Below are positions 7,059-29,189 of a stretch of DNA of 34,660 nt, in pieces. This DNA comes from Acidimicrobiia bacterium. GTDB taxonomy: Bacteria > Actinomycetota > Acidimicrobiia > Acidimicrobiales > Hopanoidiivorantaceae. How positions within the stretch are numbered: the first letter of the stretch is position 1; every line of letters starts with the position of its first letter. The translations under genes were made by a program, and so were the position numbers. The stretch lies in the NCBI GenBank assembly GCA_020027305.1, contig JAHRAM010000026.1, positions 1-34,660 of the forward strand, read 5' to 3'. The notes beneath the pieces are model-generated. The model worked only from the letters and a program-made list of their open reading frames with translations, was not told where the DNA came from and made no database searches.

Positions 7059-7141
7059 GCCCGGGTGGCGGAATTGGTAGACGCGGAGGACTCAAACTCC
7101 TCTGGCTTTTAGCTGTGCGGGTTCGAGTCCCGCCCCGGGCA
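7059..7141 (+). tRNA. tRNA-Leu (anticodon CAA), type II with long variable arm
   Basis: Manual fold. Acceptor gcccggg/cccgggc with discriminator A. Anticodon stem gagga/tcctc with loop ctCAAac. Variable arm ggc-tttta-gct. T-arm gcggg-ttcgagt-cccgc. CCA is not encoded. Confidence 0.93.
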
Positions 7142-7215
7142 CACTTATGTGTTAAACATATTTCAAGCTATCTCTTTCAAATCTTGTCGGTGGTGAGATG
7201 TAGGCTTAGAGATAG

Positions 7216-16843: not shown

Positions 16844-18220
16844 GTGCGCATAATAGTAGTGGGAGTCGGCGAAGTCGGATCTCATATAGCCGAGTCTCTG
16901 AGCGCTGATGGCGTAGACATTGTCGTTATTGAAAAAGATCAAAACCGACTAGATGAGCTATCAAAGCGACTAGACATTCTGGCAGTACGTGGAAATGCTC
17001 TAAACCACAATGTTTTGGCAAATGCTGGAGTTGCTTCAGCATTCATGTTGGTTGCAGTCACAGATAGAGATGAAGTAAATATGATGGCGTGTCTTCTGGC
17101 AGCTCAAGCGGGGGTGAAGCACCGAATCGTGCGGATTGAAAATGACTACCTACAAGACAAAAAGTCAAAGGAGCTGCGCAAGGCAATGAAGATTGGAAAG
17201 GTTATTGACCCTGACCGAACTACCGTAGATGAAATTATGCAGTTGCTCACATATCCAGGTGTAGCAGAAATTGATGAGATGGCAAATGGTGCATTGTTAA
17301 TGACAGGAGCCCAGCTAACAGAAGATAGCCCTCTTGCAAATCGAAAGTTAGCAGATATTGCCAAAGACAATGAGCCAGAGTGGGGTTTTATGGTAGGAGC
17401 AATATCTAGAGGTGAAGAAACGCTCATTCCAAGAGATACCGAGCTAATACTTTTGCCAGGCGATACGGTTAGGGTAATCGTAAAAAAGGAAGCTCTTAAA
17501 GAAATGCTCCACCAACTAGGTGCTCCTGACATCCGCCTCAAAAATATTATGGTATTGGGCGGTGGAAGAATTGGAGAAATGACTGCTGCTCGACTAGAAA
17601 GCGAAGGGCGACATGTGAAATTGATTGACCTAGACCCTGAACGCGCAACCGAGCTTTCAGAAGCTCACAACAACATTGATATCATTCAAGGTGATATCGC
17701 AAATTCTGACTTGTTAGATTCAGAGGGAATAAAACGTATGGATGCCGTGGTTGCAGTTTCTGGCAGAGACGAAAGCAATATCTTGGCATGTCTCTATGCT
17801 CAGTCAAAAGGTGTGGGAGAAATTATTTCTATCCTTCATAAGGCTGAACTAAAAAATATGTTTGCAAGATTCGGGTTAGAAAAAACCTTATCGCCGATTA
17901 CTGCCAGCATTGAATCAGTTCTTGAAATCGTTCGCTCTGAAAAAATTAAAACTACCGTTCAAAAAGTAACGAGCTTTCTAGCAATGGATATTGAGGTGCT
18001 TGAAATAACTGTTATGGCGGGAAGCCGTGCAGACGGCAAGAAGGTTTGTGAGCTTGGGCCGTCTAAAAAGATTTTGATTGGAGCAGTTGTTAACAATGAG
18101 GGAGTAAAAATAGTAAGGGGCAACACCAGCCTCCGTGCTGGTGACAAGTTGGTGGTTTTTGCTCGCCCCAATGCCCTAGGCAAGGTGTCAGAGCTATTTG
18201 AGACAAAACATAAAGACTAA
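16844..18220 (+). CDS. trkA: Trk system K+ uptake protein TrkA (tandem RCK/KTN domains)
   Basis: 458-aa ORF with a GTG start. Two NAD-binding repeats are present (IIVVGVGEVGSHIA and IMVLGGGRIGEMTA), each followed by a TrkA-C-like segment. Confidence 0.9.
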   Translation: MRIIVVGVGEVGSHIAESLSADGVDIVVIEKDQNRLDELSKRLDILAVRGNALNHNVLANAGVASAFMLVAVTDRDEVNMMACLLAAQAGVKHRIVRIENDYLQDKKSKELRKAMKIGKVIDPDRTTVDEIMQLLTYPGVAEIDEMANGALLMTGAQLTEDSPLANRKLADIAKDNEPEWGFMVGAISRGEETLIPRDTELILLPGDTVRVIVKKEALKEMLHQLGAPDIRLKNIMVLGGGRIGEMTAARLESEGRHVKLIDLDPERATELSEAHNNIDIIQGDIANSDLLDSEGIKRMDAVVAVSGRDESNILACLYAQSKGVGEIISILHKAELKNMFARFGLEKTLSPITASIESVLEIVRSEKIKTTVQKVTSFLAMDIEVLEITVMAGSRADGKKVCELGPSKKILIGAVVNNEGVKIVRGNTSLRAGDKLVVFARPNALGKVSELFETKHKD

Positions 18221-19760
18221 TATCTTAGGGCTGTTTGTGTCCTTAATCGGGGCAGGCTTAGTGCTTGCCTTGTCTGGCTTGATAGGCATGGCAACCAATG
18301 AAGCTGAAACTTTTGAGCAGCTCCATCTCACCTATGGCGTGATGTGTGTTTTGTCTGGCTTAATCGGGGCAGCATTTTTTGCCCGTAAAACTGTGGTAGA
18401 ACCAAAATCAATTTTGTCAGCTGCGCTTATTGCTATAGGAACGTTCTTGGGGGTTATATATTTCGCATTTTGGATAACTGGAAAATTTGGAAGCCTAGAC
18501 GATGTTTTGTTAGAAGCAGTTTCTGCCATCACTACCACCAACCTGAGCTTGGTGAACAACCCACAAGAATTAGGGCAAGGGCTGTTATTTTTGCGAGCAG
18601 CTACTCAGTGGGTGGGCGGTCTTGGGGCAATATGTTTTTTCTCAATACTCTTACCCGTTTTTACTAGAGGAAGAGAAAATGCCAACAATCCCCTCAAAGC
18701 TGTGCTTAGTATTTATTTTGCAGTTACTGCTATTTTGATTGTCGCATTTGTTCTTGCAAAGATGAGTTGGTTTGATGCCATTACTCATAGCTTTACTACC
18801 ATTTCAACTGGCGGATTTTCAAATTACACAAACGGGCTTTCACATTTCAATTCAGCATCTGTGGAATGGATAGCGGTGGCGGGAATGTTTGTTGGTGGAA
18901 TACGACCAGTGCTTTTGTGGTGGGGGCTTCGCCGTTCGCCTGTTGTTTTGTGGCGCTCACTAGAAATGCGCATTTATGTATTGGTGGTTCTTTCTGTCAG
19001 CCTCATACTTTTTTTAAGCGATGGAGATGGCTTGCGTCGTAGTTTCTTTAGCGTGACTTCTGCAATTTCTGGCACTGGATTTTTCTTAGAGAACTGGGCG
19101 GGCTTTGGATTTGGGCTACAAATTTTAGTGTTAGTGTTGATTGCCACAGGAACAATGTCTGGAACTGCAGCAGGCGGATTTGGGTTGACCCGCGCCACAG
19201 AATCTGTTCAGTATATATATCGTGAGCTTTATACACAGCTTCACCCAAAGGCAGTGTTTAAGGTGAAAATGGGTAGCGATGTGTTAAACGAATCTGGGCT
19301 TTCTCAAACCCAGTCATTTCAGTTTTTCTATTTAGGGGCACTTATTGTCGGAACTTTTGCACTTGCACAATCGGGGGCAGACCTTGTTTCAGCTATTGGC
19401 GGAACCATAACAGCATTTGCATCAATGGGTCCAAGCATAGGTGAATTCTTTTCTGATTCAGCTAGCTTGGCAGAACTCCCACGCCCAGCAAGAGCAGTGC
19501 TTTCTGTGATGATGCTAGTTGGCAGGGTTTCAATATTTCCAATAATGATTTTGCTATTTGCTTTTGTTGAGCGACTAAGTTTTTTTCGTTTTTCAAAGGT
19601 TCGCTCACGAATGCAATTCCTCAACAAATTGGGTGCTAAGAAATTGTTTAACAAAAAATCACAAGACGATAATTCTGTGCCGACGACAATTTCTCAGTTT
19701 GAAAATGAGACCACGACCAAGACCACCAAAAATAACATCTCAAAAGAAATTAAAGGTTAA
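18198..19760 (+). CDS. trkH: TrkH/KtrB family cation transporter, paralog 1
   Basis: 520-aa polytopic ORF with selectivity-filter-like TTN / STGGFS / SGTG / SMGPSIG segments. The TTG start overlaps trkA by 23 nt, and an in-frame ATG at 18288 is an alternative. It has a hydrophilic C-terminal tail. Confidence 0.8.
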   Translation: MRQNIKTNILGLFVSLIGAGLVLALSGLIGMATNEAETFEQLHLTYGVMCVLSGLIGAAFFARKTVVEPKSILSAALIAIGTFLGVIYFAFWITGKFGSLDDVLLEAVSAITTTNLSLVNNPQELGQGLLFLRAATQWVGGLGAICFFSILLPVFTRGRENANNPLKAVLSIYFAVTAILIVAFVLAKMSWFDAITHSFTTISTGGFSNYTNGLSHFNSASVEWIAVAGMFVGGIRPVLLWWGLRRSPVVLWRSLEMRIYVLVVLSVSLILFLSDGDGLRRSFFSVTSAISGTGFFLENWAGFGFGLQILVLVLIATGTMSGTAAGGFGLTRATESVQYIYRELYTQLHPKAVFKVKMGSDVLNESGLSQTQSFQFFYLGALIVGTFALAQSGADLVSAIGGTITAFASMGPSIGEFFSDSASLAELPRPARAVLSVMMLVGRVSIFPIMILLFAFVERLSFFRFSKVRSRMQFLNKLGAKKLFNKKSQDDNSVPTTISQFENETTTKTTKNNISKEIKG

Positions 19761-19771
19761 AGTAAAAACTC

Positions 19772-21340
19772 ATGCCAAGCACTAAACAACTACACATACG
19801 ACTAGTTGGCCCAGCCATAAGAAAAAACAGCACCACCGTTCATATGGTTGGCGCGGGGCTCTTGCTTATTTCCCCCGGCATTCTTATCGCAGGTTTAGTT
19901 GAATTACTTTCTTCTAATTCCCCAGATGCCCTTGGGCTTTTTGTCACCGCACTAATTACAGCAGGTATCGGCTATCTGTTTTGGCAAACCACTGCTATCA
20001 AAGGCACGCCCGACTCTCTATCTATTTTTTCAGCGGTGGCATGGACATGGATAATGTGTTCTCTGCTGGGATCACTTCCATATATTTTGTCTAGCCAAAT
20101 GGGCGGATGGGGAAGTTGGGATAGCGCATTGTTTGAATCCATTTCAGGGTTCAGCTGCACAGGCTCTTCAGTTCTGCCAGATATTGAATCACTTGGAAAA
20201 GGAATGCTGCTCTGGCGACAAATGACCCAGTGGTATGGTGGAATGGGAATGGTGGTTCTGGCTGTTAGTGTATTGCCTTATGTTGGAGTCGGTGGGTTGG
20301 CACTTGTAACAGCAGAAGCTCCTGGCCCATCTACCGAACGGTTAGTGCCTCGAGTTAGAGAAACTGCCAAGCGGTTATGGACGCTCTATGTGGGGATTAC
20401 GGTTTTAATCACAGTTGTTTTATTTGCAGTTCCAGGGCCAGGGCTTTATGACTCAATCGCTCATGCTCTTTCAACGGCATCAACTGGTGGCTTTTCTGTT
20501 TTCAACCAATCTATAGGGCACTATAACTCTATTGCCGTTGAGCTAATCATTGCTTTTTTCTTGGTGGTGTGTGCCTTAAGTTTTAACCTCCACTATCAAG
20601 TGCTCTTTTCAAAAGTCTCAAAGGGGTTTTTAAGCCGTATTGGCAGGTTGAAAAAATATTTTGAAAGCAAAGACCAAGCGTTCTTCATCAAAATTTTTGT
20701 TGGGACAACCATAGTCGTTTCTCTATTGGCGTGGAATTCTGCTCTCTTTACATCTTTCTGGAATGCCCTTAGGCATTCTGTTTTCAATGTAGCAACGTTA
20801 ATTTCTAGTGGGGGCTTTTCAAATGCCAGAGGGGTCGGCAGTGCTGGCGATTTTTCTCTTTGGGCACCAAGCCTTCAAATTATTTTATTGGTGCTAATGG
20901 TTATGGGGGGTTGTGTTGGGTCAACTGCTGGCGGGTTAAAGAGCTACCGAGTTTATATCGCTGCTGGACATATTAAAAACAATCTCAAAAAGACACTTCA
21001 CCCAAACCTAGTTCGACAAGTTCGCTTGGGCAAAGTCACTGTGCCAGAAGAAATCGTTCGCCGAGTTCTAGGGTTTATCACTTTGTTCGTGGTGATATTG
21101 TTGGTGGGAACACTGGTGCTTGCTAGTTTAGGAAATAATTTGCCAACTGCTTTTAGTGGGGCAGTAAGCGCCATGAGCAATATGGGCCCTGCTTTAGGAG
21201 ATGCTGGCCCAGCTGAAAATTTCCTTGCGTTTTCGCGGCCAGCAAGGGGAGTGCTAATGGCATTGATGTTAATAGGCAGGCTTGAAATTATGGCTGTGCT
21301 GTTTATGTTTCTAGACCCACTGCGCGCACTAAGGCGATAA
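19772..21340 (+). CDS. trkH: TrkH/KtrB family cation transporter, paralog 2
   Basis: 522-aa polytopic ORF with SGFSCTGSS, MTQWYGGMGMVVL, STASTGGFS, SSGGFS and SNMGPALGD motifs typical of TrkH. Confidence 0.85.
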   Translation: MPSTKQLHIRLVGPAIRKNSTTVHMVGAGLLLISPGILIAGLVELLSSNSPDALGLFVTALITAGIGYLFWQTTAIKGTPDSLSIFSAVAWTWIMCSLLGSLPYILSSQMGGWGSWDSALFESISGFSCTGSSVLPDIESLGKGMLLWRQMTQWYGGMGMVVLAVSVLPYVGVGGLALVTAEAPGPSTERLVPRVRETAKRLWTLYVGITVLITVVLFAVPGPGLYDSIAHALSTASTGGFSVFNQSIGHYNSIAVELIIAFFLVVCALSFNLHYQVLFSKVSKGFLSRIGRLKKYFESKDQAFFIKIFVGTTIVVSLLAWNSALFTSFWNALRHSVFNVATLISSGGFSNARGVGSAGDFSLWAPSLQIILLVLMVMGGCVGSTAGGLKSYRVYIAAGHIKNNLKKTLHPNLVRQVRLGKVTVPEEIVRRVLGFITLFVVILLVGTLVLASLGNNLPTAFSGAVSAMSNMGPALGDAGPAENFLAFSRPARGVLMALMLIGRLEIMAVLFMFLDPLRALRR

Positions 21341-22783
21341 TAAAAAATTAAAAATTTATCTGCGGGTGGGGTTAATAGGGAACTCTTTGGGATTATCGAA
21401 ATCACCCCAGCACCAAACACCACTACGGTCGTTATTTCTGCCCTCTACACAGCCACCACTCAGGTTCAAACCGTAGTTAAAGTTAAAACCGAGAAAAATT
21501 ACCTCATCAATGGGCAACCTTTTTGGGTTGTCAAAGTCTTCCCAGCACAAAAGCCCAGAATCAACGTCGCCATCAAGCTTGCCAAGTATGCAGCCAGAAT
21601 TAAGATTTATGTTTGACGAGATTCTAAATAATCCTCGCTCCACATCAATGGGTGATTTTCTAGGGTTCTCAAAATCATCCCAACACCATAAATCTTTTTC
21701 AGCGCTATCAGGTAAACCGCCGATTAGGCAACCCGCATCTGGAGCAAAATCAAAACTATGGTCAAATGAATCAGCGCTAGTAACAAGTGGCATCTTTTTA
21801 GGGTTATTAAAGTCTCCCCAGCACCAAATTTCCTCATCAGGAGTTTCTATGCAGCCCGCTTTCAAATTAGCCTCTAGGGTAAGTTGAGAATGGAGTCCAA
21901 GCTCAATGGGTGATTTTTTAAGATTGTCAAAATCATCCCAGCACCATAGTTCAAATTCCTCATTTTCAATATTTTTGCCGCCCACACAACCTGAATCTAA
22001 ACTAGAAGCGCTAGACCAGCGAGGGGAACGTAAGTCAATGGGAAATCTTTTTGGAGTGCCAGAATTTCCCCAGCACCAAAGCTCAGAGTCGGTACCATCG
22101 GTACCACCGTAGCAAGTTGAATTAAAGCTGGGGCTTGCTTCAACATTGCTTATATTGTCTGCAGGAAATAATTTTTTGGGATTGTTAAAATCATCCCAGC
22201 ACCAAACCTCAAACTCTCTGTGAGAAATATCGACACAGCCAGAGTCAAGATTTGCCCCTGGGCGCAAAAATACTTGTGGGCCCGTTCCCGCCGATATCCT
22301 TTCCCTCATAAAGTCAATGGGCAGTTTCTTCGGGTTATCAAAATCTGCCCAGCACCATACTTCGTAATCGTTGACAAGCCCATAGTCTCCAACAATTAGA
22401 GTTGCACAGCCAGACTCTAGATTGGATCCTAAGCTAACCGCCTCAAAGGAGCCTATATTGTCAAATGCAAGTTTTTCTGGCTTATTAAAGTCTCCCCAGC
22501 ACCAAACCTCGTAAATATCAAGCTCGCTATTAGGAATTGAAAGACAACCTGAATTTTGATCGATACGTTTTACTCCTGGAAATCCAGGAATCGTAGATTC
22601 TTCAACATCACTAGAAGTGCTTGCAGAATGATTACAAGCAGACGCCAAAAGAGCTACAGAAACCCCAAGCACGACAAAAACAACAAGTCGCATAATGATT
22701 TAGCTTAGTAAAAAATTACATCTATCTACGGGCAGTCGTATTCGTGTCGTGTTTTCTACGCCTCAATTTTTAAGCAGATTTTA
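21156..22783. repeat. Segmental tandem duplication, unit A (trkH 3' end + repeat-protein gene + its upstream region)
   Basis: Co-linear with 22784-24303. Examples are 21158-21175 vs 22786-22803, 21247-21340 vs 22804-22897, and the 5' regions 22694-22783 vs 24214-24303. Confidence 0.85.
21356..22693 (-). CDS. secreted or lipoprotein-like protein with nine Cys/Trp-rich repeats (SGC...WCWxDFxNPKK), unknown family
   Basis: 445-aa ORF. The N-terminal signal sequence is MRLVVFVVLGVSVALLASAC. Nine 40-55-aa repeats follow, each with one G-C and one (W/L)CW motif. It is a paralog of 22906-24213. Confidence 0.8.
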   Translation of the reverse strand: MRLVVFVVLGVSVALLASACNHSASTSSDVEESTIPGFPGVKRIDQNSGCLSIPNSELDIYEVWCWGDFNKPEKLAFDNIGSFEAVSLGSNLESGCATLIVGDYGLVNDYEVWCWADFDNPKKLPIDFMRERISAGTGPQVFLRPGANLDSGCVDISHREFEVWCWDDFNNPKKLFPADNISNVEASPSFNSTCYGGTDGTDSELWCWGNSGTPKRFPIDLRSPRWSSASSLDSGCVGGKNIENEEFELWCWDDFDNLKKSPIELGLHSQLTLEANLKAGCIETPDEEIWCWGDFNNPKKMPLVTSADSFDHSFDFAPDAGCLIGGLPDSAEKDLWCWDDFENPRKSPIDVERGLFRISSNINLNSGCILGKLDGDVDSGLLCWEDFDNPKRLPIDEVIFLGFNFNYGLNLSGGCVEGRNNDRSGVWCWGDFDNPKEFPINPTRR

Positions 22784-22897
22784 ATGGGGCAGTGAGCGCC
22801 ATGGGGAGTGCTAATGGCATTGATGTTAATAGGCAGGCTTGAAATTGTGGCTGTGCTGTTTATGTTTCTAGCCCCACTGCGAACACTAAGAAGATAA
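22784..22897 (+). pseudogene. relic copy of the trkH (paralog 2) 3' end
   Basis: It matches 21156-21340 but lacks about 71 nt (original 21176-21246). It retains the frame ...GVLMALMLIGRLEIVAVLFMFLAPLRTLRR* with a few substitutions. No upstream trkH body is present. Confidence 0.8.
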
Positions 22898-22905
22898 TGA
22901 AAAAT

Positions 22906-24213
22906 TTATCTGCGGAGAGGAGGAATGGGGGGCTCTTTGGGATTATTAAAATCTCCCCAACACCAAACACTATCAATGTCGTTATTTATGCCCTCTATAC
23001 AGCCACCACTCAGGCGCAAACCAGGACTATCATTGGCAGAATGTAGTTCGTCAATGGGTAACCGTTTTGGGTTGTCAAAATCTTCCCAGCATAAAAGCCC
23101 AGGGTAATCGTCACCTTTAAGTTTGCCAATTACGCAACCAGAATCAAGGTTTATGTTCGCGGTCAAATAAAATAGTCCTCGCTCTACATCAATGGGCGAT
23201 TTCTTAGGGTTTTCAAAGTCATTCCAGCACCACAAATCTTTTTCATTGCTATCAGGTAAACCGCCGATTAGGCAACCTGCATCTGGAGCAAAATCAAAAC
23301 TGTAGTCAAATGAATCAGCGCTAGTAACAAGCGGCATCTTTTTAGGGTTATTAAAGTCTCTCCAACACCAAATTTCATCATTAGAACTTGCTATGCAACC
23401 CGATTTCAAATTGGCCTCTAGGGGAAGTAGAGAATAGAGTCCAAGCTCAATGGGTGATTTTTTAGGATTGTCAAAATCATCCCAGCACCATAGTTCAATT
23501 TCATCGTTTTTAGGATCTCGGCCTTGCATGCAACCCGAATTTAGGTTGGAGAATAAAGAGTGATGAAGGTGATTTAAATTGTCAATGGGCGATTTTTTTG
23601 GAGTGCCAGAATTTCCCCAGCACCAAAGCTCAGAGTCGGTACCATCGGTACCACCGTAACAAGTTGAATTAAAGCTGGGGCTTGCTTCAACATTACCTAT
23701 AGTGTCTGTTGGAAATAATTTTCTGGGGTCGTTAAAATCATCCCAGCACCAAACCTCAAACTCTCTGTGAGAAATATCGACACAGCCAGAGTCAAGATTT
23801 GCCCCTGGACGCAAAAATACTTGTGTGCCCGTTCCCGCCGATATCCTTTTCCCACTAAAATCAATGGGCGATTTTGTGGGGTTCTCGAAATCCTCCCAAC
23901 ACCATAGTTCAAAATCAATGTCAGGTCCATGTTCTTCAACAATGAAAACACTTGCACAACCCAACTTTAAATTTGCTCCTATTGCAATTTCGGATATGTT
24001 TCCAATAGGTGACTTTTTTGGTTCGCGAAAGTTGTCCCAACACCAAGCTTCATTAATCTGAGACTCAAAATTAAAAACTTGGAGGCAACCTGAATTTTGG
24101 CTGTTTCCCCTTAGTTCTGGAAAGCCAAGAATTGCAGATTCCTCAGAATGATTACAAGCAGACGCCAAAAGAGCTACAGAAACCCCAAGCACGACAAAAA
24201 CAACAAGTCGCAT
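22906..24213 (-). CDS. secreted or lipoprotein-like protein with nine Cys/Trp-rich repeats (SGC...WCWxDFxNPKK), paralog 2
   Basis: 435-aa ORF with a signal sequence identical to paralog 1 through residue 23 and the same nine-repeat architecture. Confidence 0.8.
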   Translation of the reverse strand: MRLVVFVVLGVSVALLASACNHSEESAILGFPELRGNSQNSGCLQVFNFESQINEAWCWDNFREPKKSPIGNISEIAIGANLKLGCASVFIVEEHGPDIDFELWCWEDFENPTKSPIDFSGKRISAGTGTQVFLRPGANLDSGCVDISHREFEVWCWDDFNDPRKLFPTDTIGNVEASPSFNSTCYGGTDGTDSELWCWGNSGTPKKSPIDNLNHLHHSLFSNLNSGCMQGRDPKNDEIELWCWDDFDNPKKSPIELGLYSLLPLEANLKSGCIASSNDEIWCWRDFNNPKKMPLVTSADSFDYSFDFAPDAGCLIGGLPDSNEKDLWCWNDFENPKKSPIDVERGLFYLTANINLDSGCVIGKLKGDDYPGLLCWEDFDNPKRLPIDELHSANDSPGLRLSGGCIEGINNDIDSVWCWGDFNNPKEPPIPPLRR

Positions 24214-24446
24214 AATGATTTAGCTTAGCAAAAAATTACATCTATCTACGGGCAGTCGGGTTTGTGGCATATTTTCTAAGGCTCAATTTTTAAGCAGATT
24301 TTAGCTGAAGGAAATTTTGCTAGAATTAAGAACTTACTCGCACAAATTGGGTTTTATTTTCAATTTCACAAAAAAAGGAGAGTGAGAATAAAGCTGATAC
24401 AAAAAACGAGTGAAATTTAAAAAAATGAATGAAATTTAAGTAGCCA

Positions 24447-27400
24447 ATGTTTAATAAATCCAAACAAACACCAAAACAAGTAGGGCAAAAAAGCCTATAT
24501 CACCCAAGCCTTGAACACGATTCTTGTGGTGTTGGATTTGTGGTGAACTTAAAGGGTGAAAAAAGCCATAAGATGCTACAAACTGGCATTAGCGCCCTTG
24601 TGAATCTGGAGCATCGGGGGGCACTTGGGTCAGACCCAGAAACTGGAGATGGGGCAGGCATCTTAATCCAAATCCCAGATAAGTTTTTTCGCCAAGCAGT
24701 TGATTTCCCCCTTCCTCCCGAAGGGCAATATGCTACAGGAATGGTATTTTTGCCAAACAACAAAAAAACCGCCAAGAAATATCAAACACGAATTGAAAAG
24801 ATGGCACTACAAGAGGGGTTTTCAGTTTTGGGGTGGCGGGAAGTTCCAGTCAATGCCGATATTTTGGGAGCAGGGGCAAAGCGGTCAATGCCGGCCTTTA
24901 CTCAAATATTTCTTTCGCTGGCAGGAGACCTTACAAATGACACTGACACCGATAATACAAATAGCGCTGCCACCGACAATATGGCACTTGAGCGAAAGGC
25001 ATTTCTGTTTAGAAAATATGTTGAAAACACCATCAGCGCTGAGCTGGCGGCAGAAGATTCTAAAAACACAAAAGATGAAATCCGCATGGGTGGAAACAGC
25101 CCAATACATAAGGGCATATATTTCCCCAGCCTGTCAGCAAAAACGTTCGTCTATAAGGGAATGTTAATCGCCACTCAGCTCTCCAATTTCTATACAGATT
25201 TAAACGATGAAGCAGTCGAAACATCTCTCACGTTGTTTCACAGCAGATTTTCCACGAACACATTTCCGAGTTGGCCTCTAGCTCATCCATATCGAGTGTT
25301 AGCACACAATGGCGAGATTAACACCGTTCAAGGAAATCAAAATTGGATGAGGGCAAGAGAAGAATTGCTCCATTCCCCTGAGTTGGGCGATGACTTGAAA
25401 AAGGCTTTTCCAATTTGTACTCCTGGAGCAAGTGATACTGCCCGCTTTGATGAATGCTTGGAAATGCTATATATGGGTGGCTATGAATTAGATGAAGCGG
25501 TGCTGATGATGATTCCAGAACCGTGGGAGCATCACGAATCTATGCCCAAAGACCAATTGGCGTTTTATAAATATCACGCTTCACTTATGGAGCCGTGGGA
25601 TGGCCCAGCTTCAATCGCTTTCACCAATGGGGAAGTTATCGGGGCAGTGCTTGATAGAAACGGTCTTCGCCCAAGTCGCTATTGGGTGACAAAAGACGAT
25701 ATGGTGATTATGGCATCTGAGGTTGGAGTAGTTGATGTGCCGCCCAAAGATATTATTGAAAAGGGGCGTCTCCAGCCTGGCAAGATGTTCTTTGTTGACA
25801 CCAAGCAAGGGCGAATAGTTAGAGATGGTGAAATCAAACAACGGCTGTCATCGGCTCGCCCATATAAAGAGTGGCTAGACAGCGAACAAATTACACTTTC
25901 TGATTTGCCTGCTGCAAATTCTTCAAACAATAAGGCAGGCGACTTAGAAACAAATAAGATTTCTTCTGACGAGCTGGCGACACTTCAGCGAACTTTTGGC
26001 TATACCTACGAAGAACTAAAACTGCTCATTGCCCCAATGGCTACTGATGGGGTAGAAGCACTTGGCTCAATGGGAACTGACACCCCAATAGCAGTGCTTT
26101 CAAATCGCCAACGGTTGTTGTTTGACTATTTTCAACAACTCTTTGCTCAGGTAACCAACCCACCCCTTGATGCTATTAGGGAAAAAATCGTCACTGCCAC
26201 ATTGGGATGGCTGGGCGGTGAGCGCAATTTATTAGACCCTCAGCCTGAGTCGGCTCGCCAAATTACAATTGAGCATCCAGTTCTCACGAACCAAGAACTT
26301 GTAAAAATCAAACAACTTAGCGCTGACGAGCCAGAATCTCAGACCGACAAAATGCAAACTGAAAATTCCCCATCCTCAAAATTCCAAGCTGCCACAATTC
26401 CCATTCTCTATAATGTTTCAGAAAGAGAAGCTGGGCTGAGAAATGCACTCACTGAACTCTGTGCCAAAGTTGATGAAGCAGTTGCTGGCGGAAAAAACAT
26501 CGTGGTGCTTTCAGATAGAGGAACCTCAAAAGATTTAGCTCCTATTCCTGCCCTGCTTGCCACCGGCGCCGTTCATCACCATCTCATTAGAAATAAAAAG
26601 CGAACCCGAATAGGGCTAGTCGTTGAAACTGGAGAAGCCAGAGAAATCCATCACTTGTGCCTATTACTTGCTTATGGAGCAACGGCTATCAATCCTTACC
26701 TAGCTTTTGAATCTATTTCTAATTTGGTCAAGCGAGGGAAGTATGGATTGACAGGCGACACTAAAACCGCACACAAAAACTACATAAAAGCAACCGACAA
26801 GGGGATTTTAAAAGTAATGTCAAAGATGGGAATATCAACTGTTCGTTCCTATGTCGACTCACAAATTTTTGAAGCTATTGGCTTGGGGGATGAATTGATT
26901 GAAGAGTTTTTCACTGGCACCCTAAGTCGCCTAGGGGGAATTGGGCTGGCAGAACTTGCTGAAGAATGTAGTCGCCGCCACAAACTGGCATACCCCGAAA
27001 ACCCAACTGAGCGAGCTCACCGAAACCTAAGCATTGGTGGAGAATATCAATGGCGGCGAGAAGGCGAATATCACCTGTTTAACCCTGAAACTGTTTTTAA
27101 GCTCCAGCACTCAACTAGGTCGGGGCGCTATGAAATATTTAAGCAATACTCAAAAAAGGTTGACGACCAAGCAAAAAACTTGGCAACCCTCCGTGGCCTG
27201 TTCTCTCTGAAAGAAGCCAAGCAACCTGTGCCACTTGAAGAAGTTGAGCCAACATCTGAAATCGTGAAACGATTTGCCACTGGGGCGATGTCATTTGGAT
27301 CAATATCAGCTGAAGCACATGAGACCCTTGCCATTGCAATGAACCGCATTGGTGGAAAATCAAATTCGGGCGAAGGTGGAGAAGATGCCAAACGATATGT

Positions 27401-29189
27401 TGCCGACAAAAATGGCGACTTTAGGCGGAGCGCGATTAAGCAAGCTGCCTCTGGGCGCTTTGGGGTCACTAGCCAATATTTAACTCAAGCTACCGACCTC
27501 CAAATCAAAATGGCACAAGGTGCAAAGCCAGGTGAAGGCGGGCAGCTCCCCGGCCACAAAGTCTGGCCGTGGATTGCCGATGTGAGACATTCAACACCAG
27601 GGGTGGGCTTGATTTCGCCCCCTCCTCATCACGACATTTATTCCATTGAAGACATTGCCCAACTCATCCACGACCTTAAAAACTCAAACCCGCTAGCACG
27701 CGTTCATGTAAAGCTGGTTTCAGAGCTGGGGGTTGGAACAGTTGCTGCGGGAGTTTCAAAAGCACACTCCGATGTAGTTTTAATTTCTGGGCACGATGGA
27801 GGAACTGGGGCAGCAGTGCTAACCTCAATCAAGCATGCTGGTACCCCGTGGGAGCTGGGGCTGGCCGAAACTCAACAAACGTTGGTGCTAAATGGGCTTC
27901 GCGACCGAATAGTAGTTCAAGTTGACGGGCAGTTAAAGACAGGAAGAGATGTCATTATCGCAGCCCTCTTAGGTGCTGAAGAATTTGGTTTTGCAACAGC
28001 TCCACTTGTTGTGATGGGTTGTGTGATGATGCGGGTCTGCCATCTTGACACTTGCCCAGTTGGGATTGCGACTCAAAACCCTGAACTGCGAGAGAAGTTT
28101 ACGGGCAAAGCCGAATTCGTGGTGAATTTCATGGAGTTCGTAGCAGAAGAAGTTCGTGAATATTTAGCAAGCCTCGGGCTTCGCTCAATTGATGAAGCAG
28201 TCGGCAGAGTTGACTTGCTAAACACAGAACAAGCGATTTCTCATTGGAAGGCTGGTGGGCTTGACCTTTCACCAATATTTTATATGCCCGAGCTCACAGC
28301 CGACGAGGCAAGATATTGCATTAGCAAACAAGACCATGGGCTAGAACGCGCCCTAGATGTTGAGCTAATTAAACTTAGCGAACCTGCCCTTTCACGAGGT
28401 GAAAAAGTTCACTTTAATACCGCAATCAAAAATGTTAATCGCACGGTCGGCACAATGCTTGGCAATGCGCTCACAAAGAAATGGGGAGCCGATGGCTTGC
28501 CCGAAGATACAATTTCAATTGACTTCAAAGGCTCGGCTGGTCAAAGTTTTGGGGCATTTTTGCCAAAAGGTATCACCTTGAAATTATATGGCGATGCCAA
28601 TGATTACACAGCCAAGGGGCTTTCAGGTGGAAAAATAATTGTGCGCCCTGACGAAGATGCTGAATTTATTGCACAAAACAATGTGATTTCTGGCAATGTC
28701 ATCGCTTATGGCGCAACCAGCGGGGAAATCTTTTTACGTGGCATTGTGGGCGAGCGATTTTGCGTTAGAAATTCTGGAGCCATTGCCGTGGTTGAGGGAG
28801 TGGGCGATCACGGGTGTGAATATATGACTGGAGGAAAGGCAGTTATTTTAGGTGAAACTGGGCGGAACTTTGGCGCAGGAATGTCTGGCGGAATTGCCTA
28901 TATCTATGATGAGCATAATAATTTTGCTAAGAACCTAAACGGAGAAATGGTAAATGTTGAGCCACTGGACGACATCGATATTGAGTGGCTAAAGGAAAGA
29001 ATAAACATGCACTTGCTTCATACCGATTCAGCAGTGGCAACGTATATTTTGGCACATTGGGATTCAACAATGGAAAAGTTTGTGAAAGTTCTGCCCCAAG
29101 ATCTCAAACGGGTGATGGAAGCTACAGCCGAAGCCGAAGCTAAAAAGGAAGATCCACTTGAGTTGATAATGAAAGCAGCACATGACTAG
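24447..29189 (+). CDS. gltB: glutamate synthase large subunit
   Basis: 1580-aa ORF. It has an Ntn amidotransferase N-terminus ([11 protein letters not shown]), a central domain, the FMN/3Fe-4S domain ([12 protein letters not shown], CxxxxxC context [13 protein letters not shown]) and a C-terminal GXGXG beta-helix ([11 protein letters not shown]). Confidence 0.97.

Follow-up and report, generated by a model that had tools for sequence, protein, structure and literature searches.

Two adjacent genes on the minus strand of a 34,660-nucleotide stretch from an Acidimicrobiia bacterium (contig JAHRAM010000026.1, positions 1 to 34,660; the whole of this stretch was analysed and is hereafter called the window) encode a pair of repeat proteins, A and B. 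We consider it quite likely that these are Sec-exported lipoproteins, each folded into a closed, disulfide-pinned propeller of nine RCC1-like blades, that they act as a binding platform at the cell surface, and that they arose by tandem duplication. From the profile and pairwise comparisons described below, A and B belong to the RCC1-like repeat superfamily, as the most divergent proteins of one small branch within it, and do not form a separate family. The features that carry the argument are as follows:

21356–22693, minus strand: gene A, a predicted lipoprotein of 445 amino acids with nine divergent RCC1-like repeats (open reading frame (ORF) list, repeat dissection and homology chain to RCC1_2).
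21371–22591, minus strand: repeat region of A (residues 35–441), nine units of 40–51 amino acids with the pattern SGC...(10–18 residues)...WCW-DFxNPKKxPI (repeat dissection).
22634–22693, minus strand: signal peptide and putative lipobox of A (MRLVVFVVLGVSVALLASA, then C20), from a fit to the G+LPPv2 pattern; the Cys followed by [NS]HS is kept in 6/6 family members.
22906–24213, minus strand: gene B, a 435-amino-acid paralog of A with nine collinear repeats (ORF list, alignment).
22921–24132, minus strand: repeat region of B (residues 28–431), nine units (repeat dissection).
24154–24213, minus strand: signal peptide and putative lipobox of B (pattern fit); its first 23 codons are nucleotide-identical to those of A.

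The sequence-only reading that preceded this analysis had described two minus-strand ORFs of 445 and 435 amino acids with a common signal sequence, and both do open with MRLVVFVVLGVSVALLASAC. The two proteins are 73% identical and collinear in a protein alignment; the computed mature forms are acidic (isoelectric point 4.3 for A, 4.3–4.4 for the pair) and of ~47 kDa. That reading had also proposed nine consecutive units, each with exactly two Cys. Nine units are present in both A and B, at a measured length of 40–51 residues (40–55 had been proposed), and the Cys count holds in 18/18 units. Each protein has 19 Cys, namely Cys20 of the lipobox and nine pairs, together with nine CW sites that lie 40–51 residues apart. 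An alignment of the 18 units shows three invariant residues, the two Cys and the Trp that follows the second one, and has the consensus NLxSGC...ELWCWxDFxNPKKxPID; the chains stop 4 residues past repeat 9. At the DNA level, a 57-nt motif occurs in the pair in 16 copies spaced 120–153 nt (repeat family D1), and the nine plus-strand positions previously listed for the WCW codons of A are all CCAGCACCA-like, with a minus-strand translation of WCW, or LCW at 21542. Repeat dissection likewise recovered the two irregularities that had been pointed out, LCW in unit 8 and WCWGNSGTPK in unit 4. This repeat pattern is far beyond chance.

A key observation to emerge from database searches is that A and B can be connected to RCC1-like proteins through intermediates. 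A word-indexed search of 5.8 billion proteins with A alone returned only A, B and the RCC1-domain protein P0003 (E=1.3e-4). When 1.84 billion cluster representatives were searched exhaustively by HMMER with a profile of the 18 window units, 17 matches were obtained. On reading the sequences, four of these (P0004, P0005, P0006 and P0009) prove to be true relatives, with a similar signal peptide, ending ...LGAxAC[NS]HS, and 8–9 repeats of GC-x8-ELWCW...F-x-N-P-x-K-x-P-[IV]. Also among the 17 are ordinary bacterial RCC1-like proteins (P0010, P0003, P0013, P0014, P0015 and P0018, with HTCA...LWCWG-x-N-x-x-GQLG), which the window-unit profile reaches at E=7e-8 to 7e-4 (7e-8 for P0010, 5e-5 for P0003).

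The relatives supply the chain of homology. In full-length alignments, P0004 matches A at E=4e-34 and P0005 at E=2e-47, and P0005, P0009 and P0006 score 45.1, 36.4 and 30.5 bits, respectively, against Pfam RCC1_2, for which the gathering cut-off is 22 bits; for P0005 there is in addition a match of >100 residues to WD40_RLD, a model of 363 positions (E=4e-11). A profile built from the six proteins retrieves 523 proteins, and among the best 120 of these, 117/117 non-family proteins contain RCC1 Pfam domains, with E-values down to 3e-64. When the window-unit profile was aligned by hhalign to the eleven canonical units of P0010 (probability 91.6%, E=8e-7), SGC...ELWCWxDF was paired with TCA...TLWCWGxN. 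Because of this chain through P0004, the RCC1_2 scores, the six-protein profile and the hhalign result, we class A and B as RCC1-like. Their repeats read as trimmed RCC1-like blades, in which a shorter DFxNPKKxPI stands in place of the GQLG loop. The earlier assertion of "no recognisable family" thus fails, since three relatives pass RCC1_2 and the profile retrieves RCC1 proteins; the RCC1 likeness that had been set aside as faint is real homology according to the pairwise chain and the profile searches. A confident hidden Markov model (HMM) match to a characterised family, which the sequence-only reading had named as evidence against an orphan status, was obtained indirectly, through the relatives, but brings no known function with it.

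Several other candidates were discarded. P0008, among the 17 matches, is an Ig-like repeat protein. P0012 and P0017, in which SSPAPKSGCY and MNLNKGCIE recur, look by eye like arrays of short DNA repeats, probably CRISPR, that have been translated, and are annotation artefacts of the protein collection. A match to Pfam Invas_SpaK (E=0.001; 19.6 bits versus a cut-off of 25) covers a stretch of ~40 residues, and NCBIfam SpaK gives E=3.3; we attribute it to chance, SpaK being a cytosolic type III secretion chaperone. Matches to PUD/amylopullulanase are explained by the string W-x-W-G-D-x-x-N-P alone.

The pairing of Cys in every unit extends to the whole family: mature Cys are paired throughout all six members, in agreement with what had been claimed for A and B. 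Among the four relatives, 32/34 pairs have a Cys–Cys spacing of exactly 10, which is also that of unit 6 in A and in B and of canonical HTCA...LWCWG repeats; the Cys–Cys hairpins of A and B carry insertions of up to 9 residues. Both Cys columns align with Cys pairs in two consecutive repeats of the plant receptor ACR4 (PDB: 7a0j), albeit in a weak match (E=0.025). The ACR4 structure is a propeller of seven blades, in each of which one disulfide is conserved, its nearest structural relatives being BLIP-II and UVR8, both RCC1-type propellers; its authors describe the blade disulfides as unique to plant CRINKLY4 ectodomains (bioRxiv 10.1101/2020.08.10.245050). As for how such bonds could form in the present host, exported proteins of Actinobacteria undergo oxidative folding by way of MdbA (PMC9974433). 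We infer one disulfide per unit in A and B.

Structure prediction points to the same architecture. With only A and B as input, AlphaFold2 gave a model with a predicted local distance difference test (pLDDT) of 59 and a predicted TM-score (pTM) of 0.46; with the six-member alignment these values rose to 65.9 and 0.60, and the model is all-beta, with ~four strands per unit and a disordered N-terminus (residues 1–43). Every Foldseek match in the PDB, for both models, is a beta-propeller. Globally, the better model superposes best on the Vps10p domains of sortilin and SorLA, which have 10 blades (query-normalised TM-score, TMq, 0.46–0.56), and on eIF2A (PDB: 3wj9; TMq 0.51, target-normalised TMt 0.56), which is nine-bladed. 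The propeller architecture proposed from unit length is thereby supported at the level of models, and A and B are each predicted to form one large ring, with nine as the modelled blade count.

We next consider export. All six family members have an N-terminal basic residue, a hydrophobic stretch and a lipobox ending in Cys, and 6/6 fit the Gram-positive lipoprotein pattern G+LPPv2 as a pattern match; the lipobox Cys is invariant in 6/6 while the residues ahead of it differ (ASAC, ATAC, VAAC, AAAC). The extracytoplasmic location suggested in the sequence-only reading gains support from this, and A and B would be lipidated at Cys20. Taking together the lipoprotein pattern, the paired Cys, the disulfides of ACR4 and oxidative folding by MdbA, the best reading is that of a lipid-anchored extracytoplasmic propeller, presumably with one disulfide in each blade.

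We envisage the following course of events. A and B would be exported by Sec as lipoproteins of a monoderm, actinobacterial Acidimicrobiia-like cell and lipidated at Cys20. Beyond a short acidic linker without ordered structure, the rest of the mature protein would fold into a closed beta-propeller whose nine blades are shortened versions of the RCC1-like blade. In every blade a disulfide would join the Cys on the SGC strand to that on the WCW strand, these being the two strands of the canonical RCC1-like hairpin. The propeller would most likely serve for binding, as a platform exposed on the outside of the cell membrane; no catalytic signature was found in the A and B sequences. The loop of the Cys–Cys hairpin, where lengths vary and A and B are most dissimilar, probably sets ligand specificity. 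A role as a surface binding scaffold is most likely on account of the predicted lipid anchor, the predicted rigid, disulfide-pinned propeller, the variable loops on a fixed scaffold and the existence of tandem paralogs. Candidate activities are BLIP-II-like enzyme inhibition, capture of a polymer or nutrient, and a role in the cell envelope.

The origin of the pair can be read from two direct repeats, which define the following features:

22694–22783, minus strand: conserved 5' flank of A, with a copy upstream of B at 24214–24303 (direct repeat D6 and upstream alignment).
22800–22906, plus strand: non-coding copy of the trkH 3' end, in the spacer between B and A (direct repeat D8).

Repeat D6 (22624–22783 versus 24144–24303) is 94% identical, and the 5' flank it contains probably holds the promoter and leader. 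Repeat D8, of 107 nt (21243–21349 versus 22800–22906), is 93% identical and has its original in trkH (19772–21340). The duplicated segment, of ~1.55 kb, therefore runs from within the trkH 3' end to ~90 nt upstream of the start codon; bearing in mind that the spacer holds a copy of the trkH 3' end, the duplication took place in situ, when the gene already lay next to trkH. Tandem arrangement is also found in the relatives: the end of P0006, the whole of P0005 and the start of P0009 are arranged head to tail on one strand of a single contig (L005, 1–2209, Logan SRR27685851; guanine-plus-cytosine (GC) content 0.41). P0006, P0005 and P0009 are each assigned to a contig of up to 6,499 bp, presumably one and the same. 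Tandem arrays are thus a trait of the family that goes beyond the pair in the window.

Divergence between A and B is a mosaic: units 3, 4 and 7 are 88–91% identical and units 1, 2 and 5 are 47–59% identical, while at synonymous sites divergence in units 1–2 is high or saturated and the distribution of differences along the genes is uneven (chi-square p=4e-4). This pattern suggests gene conversion or recombination between A and B, as read from the two sequences; runs tests for gene conversion between them were not significant (p=0.08–0.17). The pair, once born in place, may since have been homogenised or diversified patch by patch. Both copies are under purifying selection, the ratio of non-synonymous to synonymous divergence (dN/dS) being 0.41 and the proportion of non-synonymous differences (pN) lying below that of synonymous ones (pS; p=4e-9). 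The contention that the paralogs vary mainly outside the motifs is borne out: 86% of motif columns are identical between A and B, versus 61% of non-motif columns (Fisher p=4e-8), and the Cys–Cys hairpin loops are the least conserved part (56% identity).

A number of results weigh against the reading of A and B as anchored RCC1-like propellers. A Pfam scan of the two proteins gave no RCC1 match even at E<=10, an NCBIfam scan gave no significant family, and a PDB sequence search gave no significant match, ACR4 being the best. The GQLG signature loop is absent from 18/18 units, which have the consensus WCWxDFxNPKKxPID instead; the substitution of DFxNPKK for the GQLG half of an RCC1 repeat had been noticed from the sequence, and it is confirmed. 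There are nine repeats in A and B, and 8–9 in the relatives, versus the seven blades that are canonical in RCC1, UVR8, BLIP-II and ACR4. The confidence of the better AlphaFold2 model is moderate, the ASA/C junction of A and B can be read as a signal peptidase I site, and no functional partner genes are found among the neighbours (trkA/trkH and gltBD). One could argue from the empty domain scans that the proteins have no relation to RCC1 and represent a novel repeat fold or family, in which G-C...WCW is convergent and the HMM scores merely sum a short motif over many repeats. The hhalign alignment spans only 22 columns, and the closest relative, P0004, is likewise without a Pfam match, both of which speak for this alternative. 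Nevertheless we consider it very unlikely: the alignments of A with P0004 and of P0004 with P0005 are full-length, the WD40_RLD match of P0005 extends over >100 residues, the sequences agree in Cys spacing (10), in hydrophobic pattern and in the Pro and Ile/Val past the loop, and the predicted model is a propeller.

On the other hand, RCC1-like homology could be accepted and the membrane anchor disputed. Since ASA/C obeys the AxA rule on a reading of the sequence, signal peptidase I might cut after ASA to release a soluble binder or inhibitor in the manner of BLIP-II, which is a secreted binder of the RCC1/BLIP-II type and a potent inhibitor of beta-lactamase (PMC9218822). This is unlikely, given that it is the Cys that is invariant after the hydrophobic region while the residues of the AxA position vary, that G+LPPv2 is fitted by every member, that a lone N-terminal Cys is unusual in proteins whose other Cys are strictly paired, and that no sequence similarity of A or B to BLIP-II was found. 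It might also be supposed that the genes are decaying or unexpressed duplicates without function, and indeed neither promoter nor terminator rises above the shuffled background. We find this hardly credible, however, when both ORFs are intact, none of the 36 repeat Cys has been lost, nor has any Trp that follows a second Cys, selection against non-synonymous change is evident, the 5' flank is conserved between the copies and the relatives retain the same architecture.

The preferred reading, an anchored RCC1-like propeller, can be set beside systems already known. Bacterial RCC1-like proteins (PF00415, RCC1; PF13540, RCC1_2; PF25390, WD40_RLD; often annotated 'alpha-tubulin suppressor-like RCC1 family protein') have in common with A and B blade-sized tandem repeats and the hairpin core small-x-C-(8 residues)-h-W-C-W-G/D, with Cys 10 apart. 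They differ in having a G-x-N-x-x-G-Q-L-G loop where A and B have the shorter D-F-x-N-P-K-K-x-P-I; A and B, for their part, are distinguished by units of 40–51 residues, nine repeats, insertions in the Cys–Cys hairpins and scores below the Pfam cut-offs. The CRINKLY4 (ACR4/PpCR4) ectodomain is also an extracytoplasmic RCC1-like propeller, and its Cys columns align with those of A and B; unlike them, ACR4 is a plant protein of seven blades that further comprises an N-terminal strand filling the pore, a TNFR-like Cys-rich domain, a transmembrane helix and a kinase. Neither a kinase nor a Cys-rich domain was seen in the Pfam scan of A and B, which have no Cys outside the lipobox and the repeat pairs. 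BLIP-II of Streptomyces exfoliatus is the one characterised exported actinobacterial member of the RCC1-like lineage, a propeller of the RCC1/BLIP-II lineage that acts purely as a binder (PMC9218822). It has seven blades, is not a lipoprotein and is without blade disulfides (bioRxiv 10.1101/2020.08.10.245050 for the disulfides), and its structure (1JTD) is not among the PDB sequence matches of A, the family profile, P0006 or the unit profile. Vps10p domains (sortilin, SorLA) and eIF2A give the best global superpositions of the AlphaFold2 model, although at 9–11% sequence identity there is no family relationship; the resemblance is one of blade number only and depends on a model of moderate confidence.

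We also noted that the HTC...WCWG Cys pair, with its spacing of 10, is a common feature among ordinary RCC1-like proteins of bacteria, such as P0010 and P0014, in which it occupies the positions of the per-blade disulfides of ACR4. Because the pair is so common, the CRINKLY4 blade disulfides probably have a wide bacterial counterpart.

Relatives of A and B are scarce. The family is extremely rare, with six proteins among ~15 billion. The GTDB species representatives contain no relative of A or B, and no relative with the A/B peptide patterns was found in the JGI metagenome contigs scanned; a DNA pattern for F[DE]NPKKSPI had 7 matches in the JGI contigs, all of them in stop-filled frames, which we rejected. 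In an exact sequence look-up, A, P0004 and P0006 were unrecorded and P0005 was recorded only on one 2.2-kb contig.

Turning to the genomic setting, the pair sits between trkH and gltB (24447–29189), and the window is part of the core chromosome, with fab genes, polA, rpsA, an H+-pyrophosphatase (PPase) gene, trkA, two trkH and gltBD. The neighbours, trkA/trkH and gltBD, accord with the earlier statement that no enzyme, transporter or regulator partner accompanies the pair. It had further been called the sole non-housekeeping insert; the region is indeed otherwise housekeeping, but a gene of unknown function for a DUF3179 protein (E=4e-90) lies at 180–1211, at the left window edge beside the fab cluster, so the pair is not strictly the only such item. 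The sole Rfam or ARAGORN match in the window is a tRNA-Leu(CAA) at 7059–7142, just upstream of polA; the Rfam scan found nothing near genes A and B. Two adjacent TrkH-type genes follow trkA (18198–19760 and 19772–21340), a doublet that is also present in related loci of metagenome-assembled genomes (MAGs). Of the two, the first is by far the more divergent: it matches the Pfam model only in part, at E=3.6e-25, versus E=2e-59 for the second.

The best outside matches of PolA are 63–64% identical and are followed by many at 46–56%, of which the named ones are labelled Acidimicrobiia, Acidimicrobiales, Microthrixaceae or 'bacterium'. TrkH matches three Acidimicrobiales/Acidimicrobiaceae MAGs at 47–53% and one MAG labelled Burkholderiales at 43%. 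With PolA and TrkH matches this distant, the host lineage is a poorly sampled one within the Acidimicrobiia. Three of these MAGs have the order PPase, trkA, trkH, trkH, a ~1.5-kb gap, gltB and gltD; in the two whose gap was inspected (L001, 11521–13059; L004, 11498–12799) it holds, by eye, a minus-strand M18-aminopeptidase-like gene. In the window the counterpart of the gap, 21341–24446, holds the lipoprotein pair instead, and no remnant of the M18-aminopeptidase-like gene was found there. The GC content of the pair is not deviant. Searches of phage and plasmid collections, PADLOC and PHROGs gave no match except one PHROGs family of unknown function (E=0.0011), and hence no sign of a mobile-element or defence origin.

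An apparent orphan pair is thus placed in the RCC1/BLIP-II propeller lineage, as a very rare variant of the RCC1-like family and no new class. The variant is an extreme one, with a trimmed loop, a predicted lipid anchor, 8–9 predicted blades and one Cys pair per blade. No long-standing open question is touched by the pair; a bacterial counterpart or origin of the CRINKLY4 blade disulfides is a possible lead. For the organism, A and B are among the few lineage-specific surface proteins encoded in an otherwise housekeeping region, and are candidates for lineage-specific interactions with the environment. A bolder reading, which we hold to be rather unlikely, is that nine-bladed, disulfide-stapled lipoprotein propellers, derived from RCC1-like repeats, form a family restricted to one deep-branching clade of Acidimicrobiia, on whose surface tandem arrays diversify into variable receptors. 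It would include, just as tentatively, a bacterial counterpart of the CRINKLY4 disulfides and diversification by duplication with patch-wise gene conversion. Were it true, these proteins would be variable surface receptors for nutrient or polymer capture, or else phage targets or decoys.

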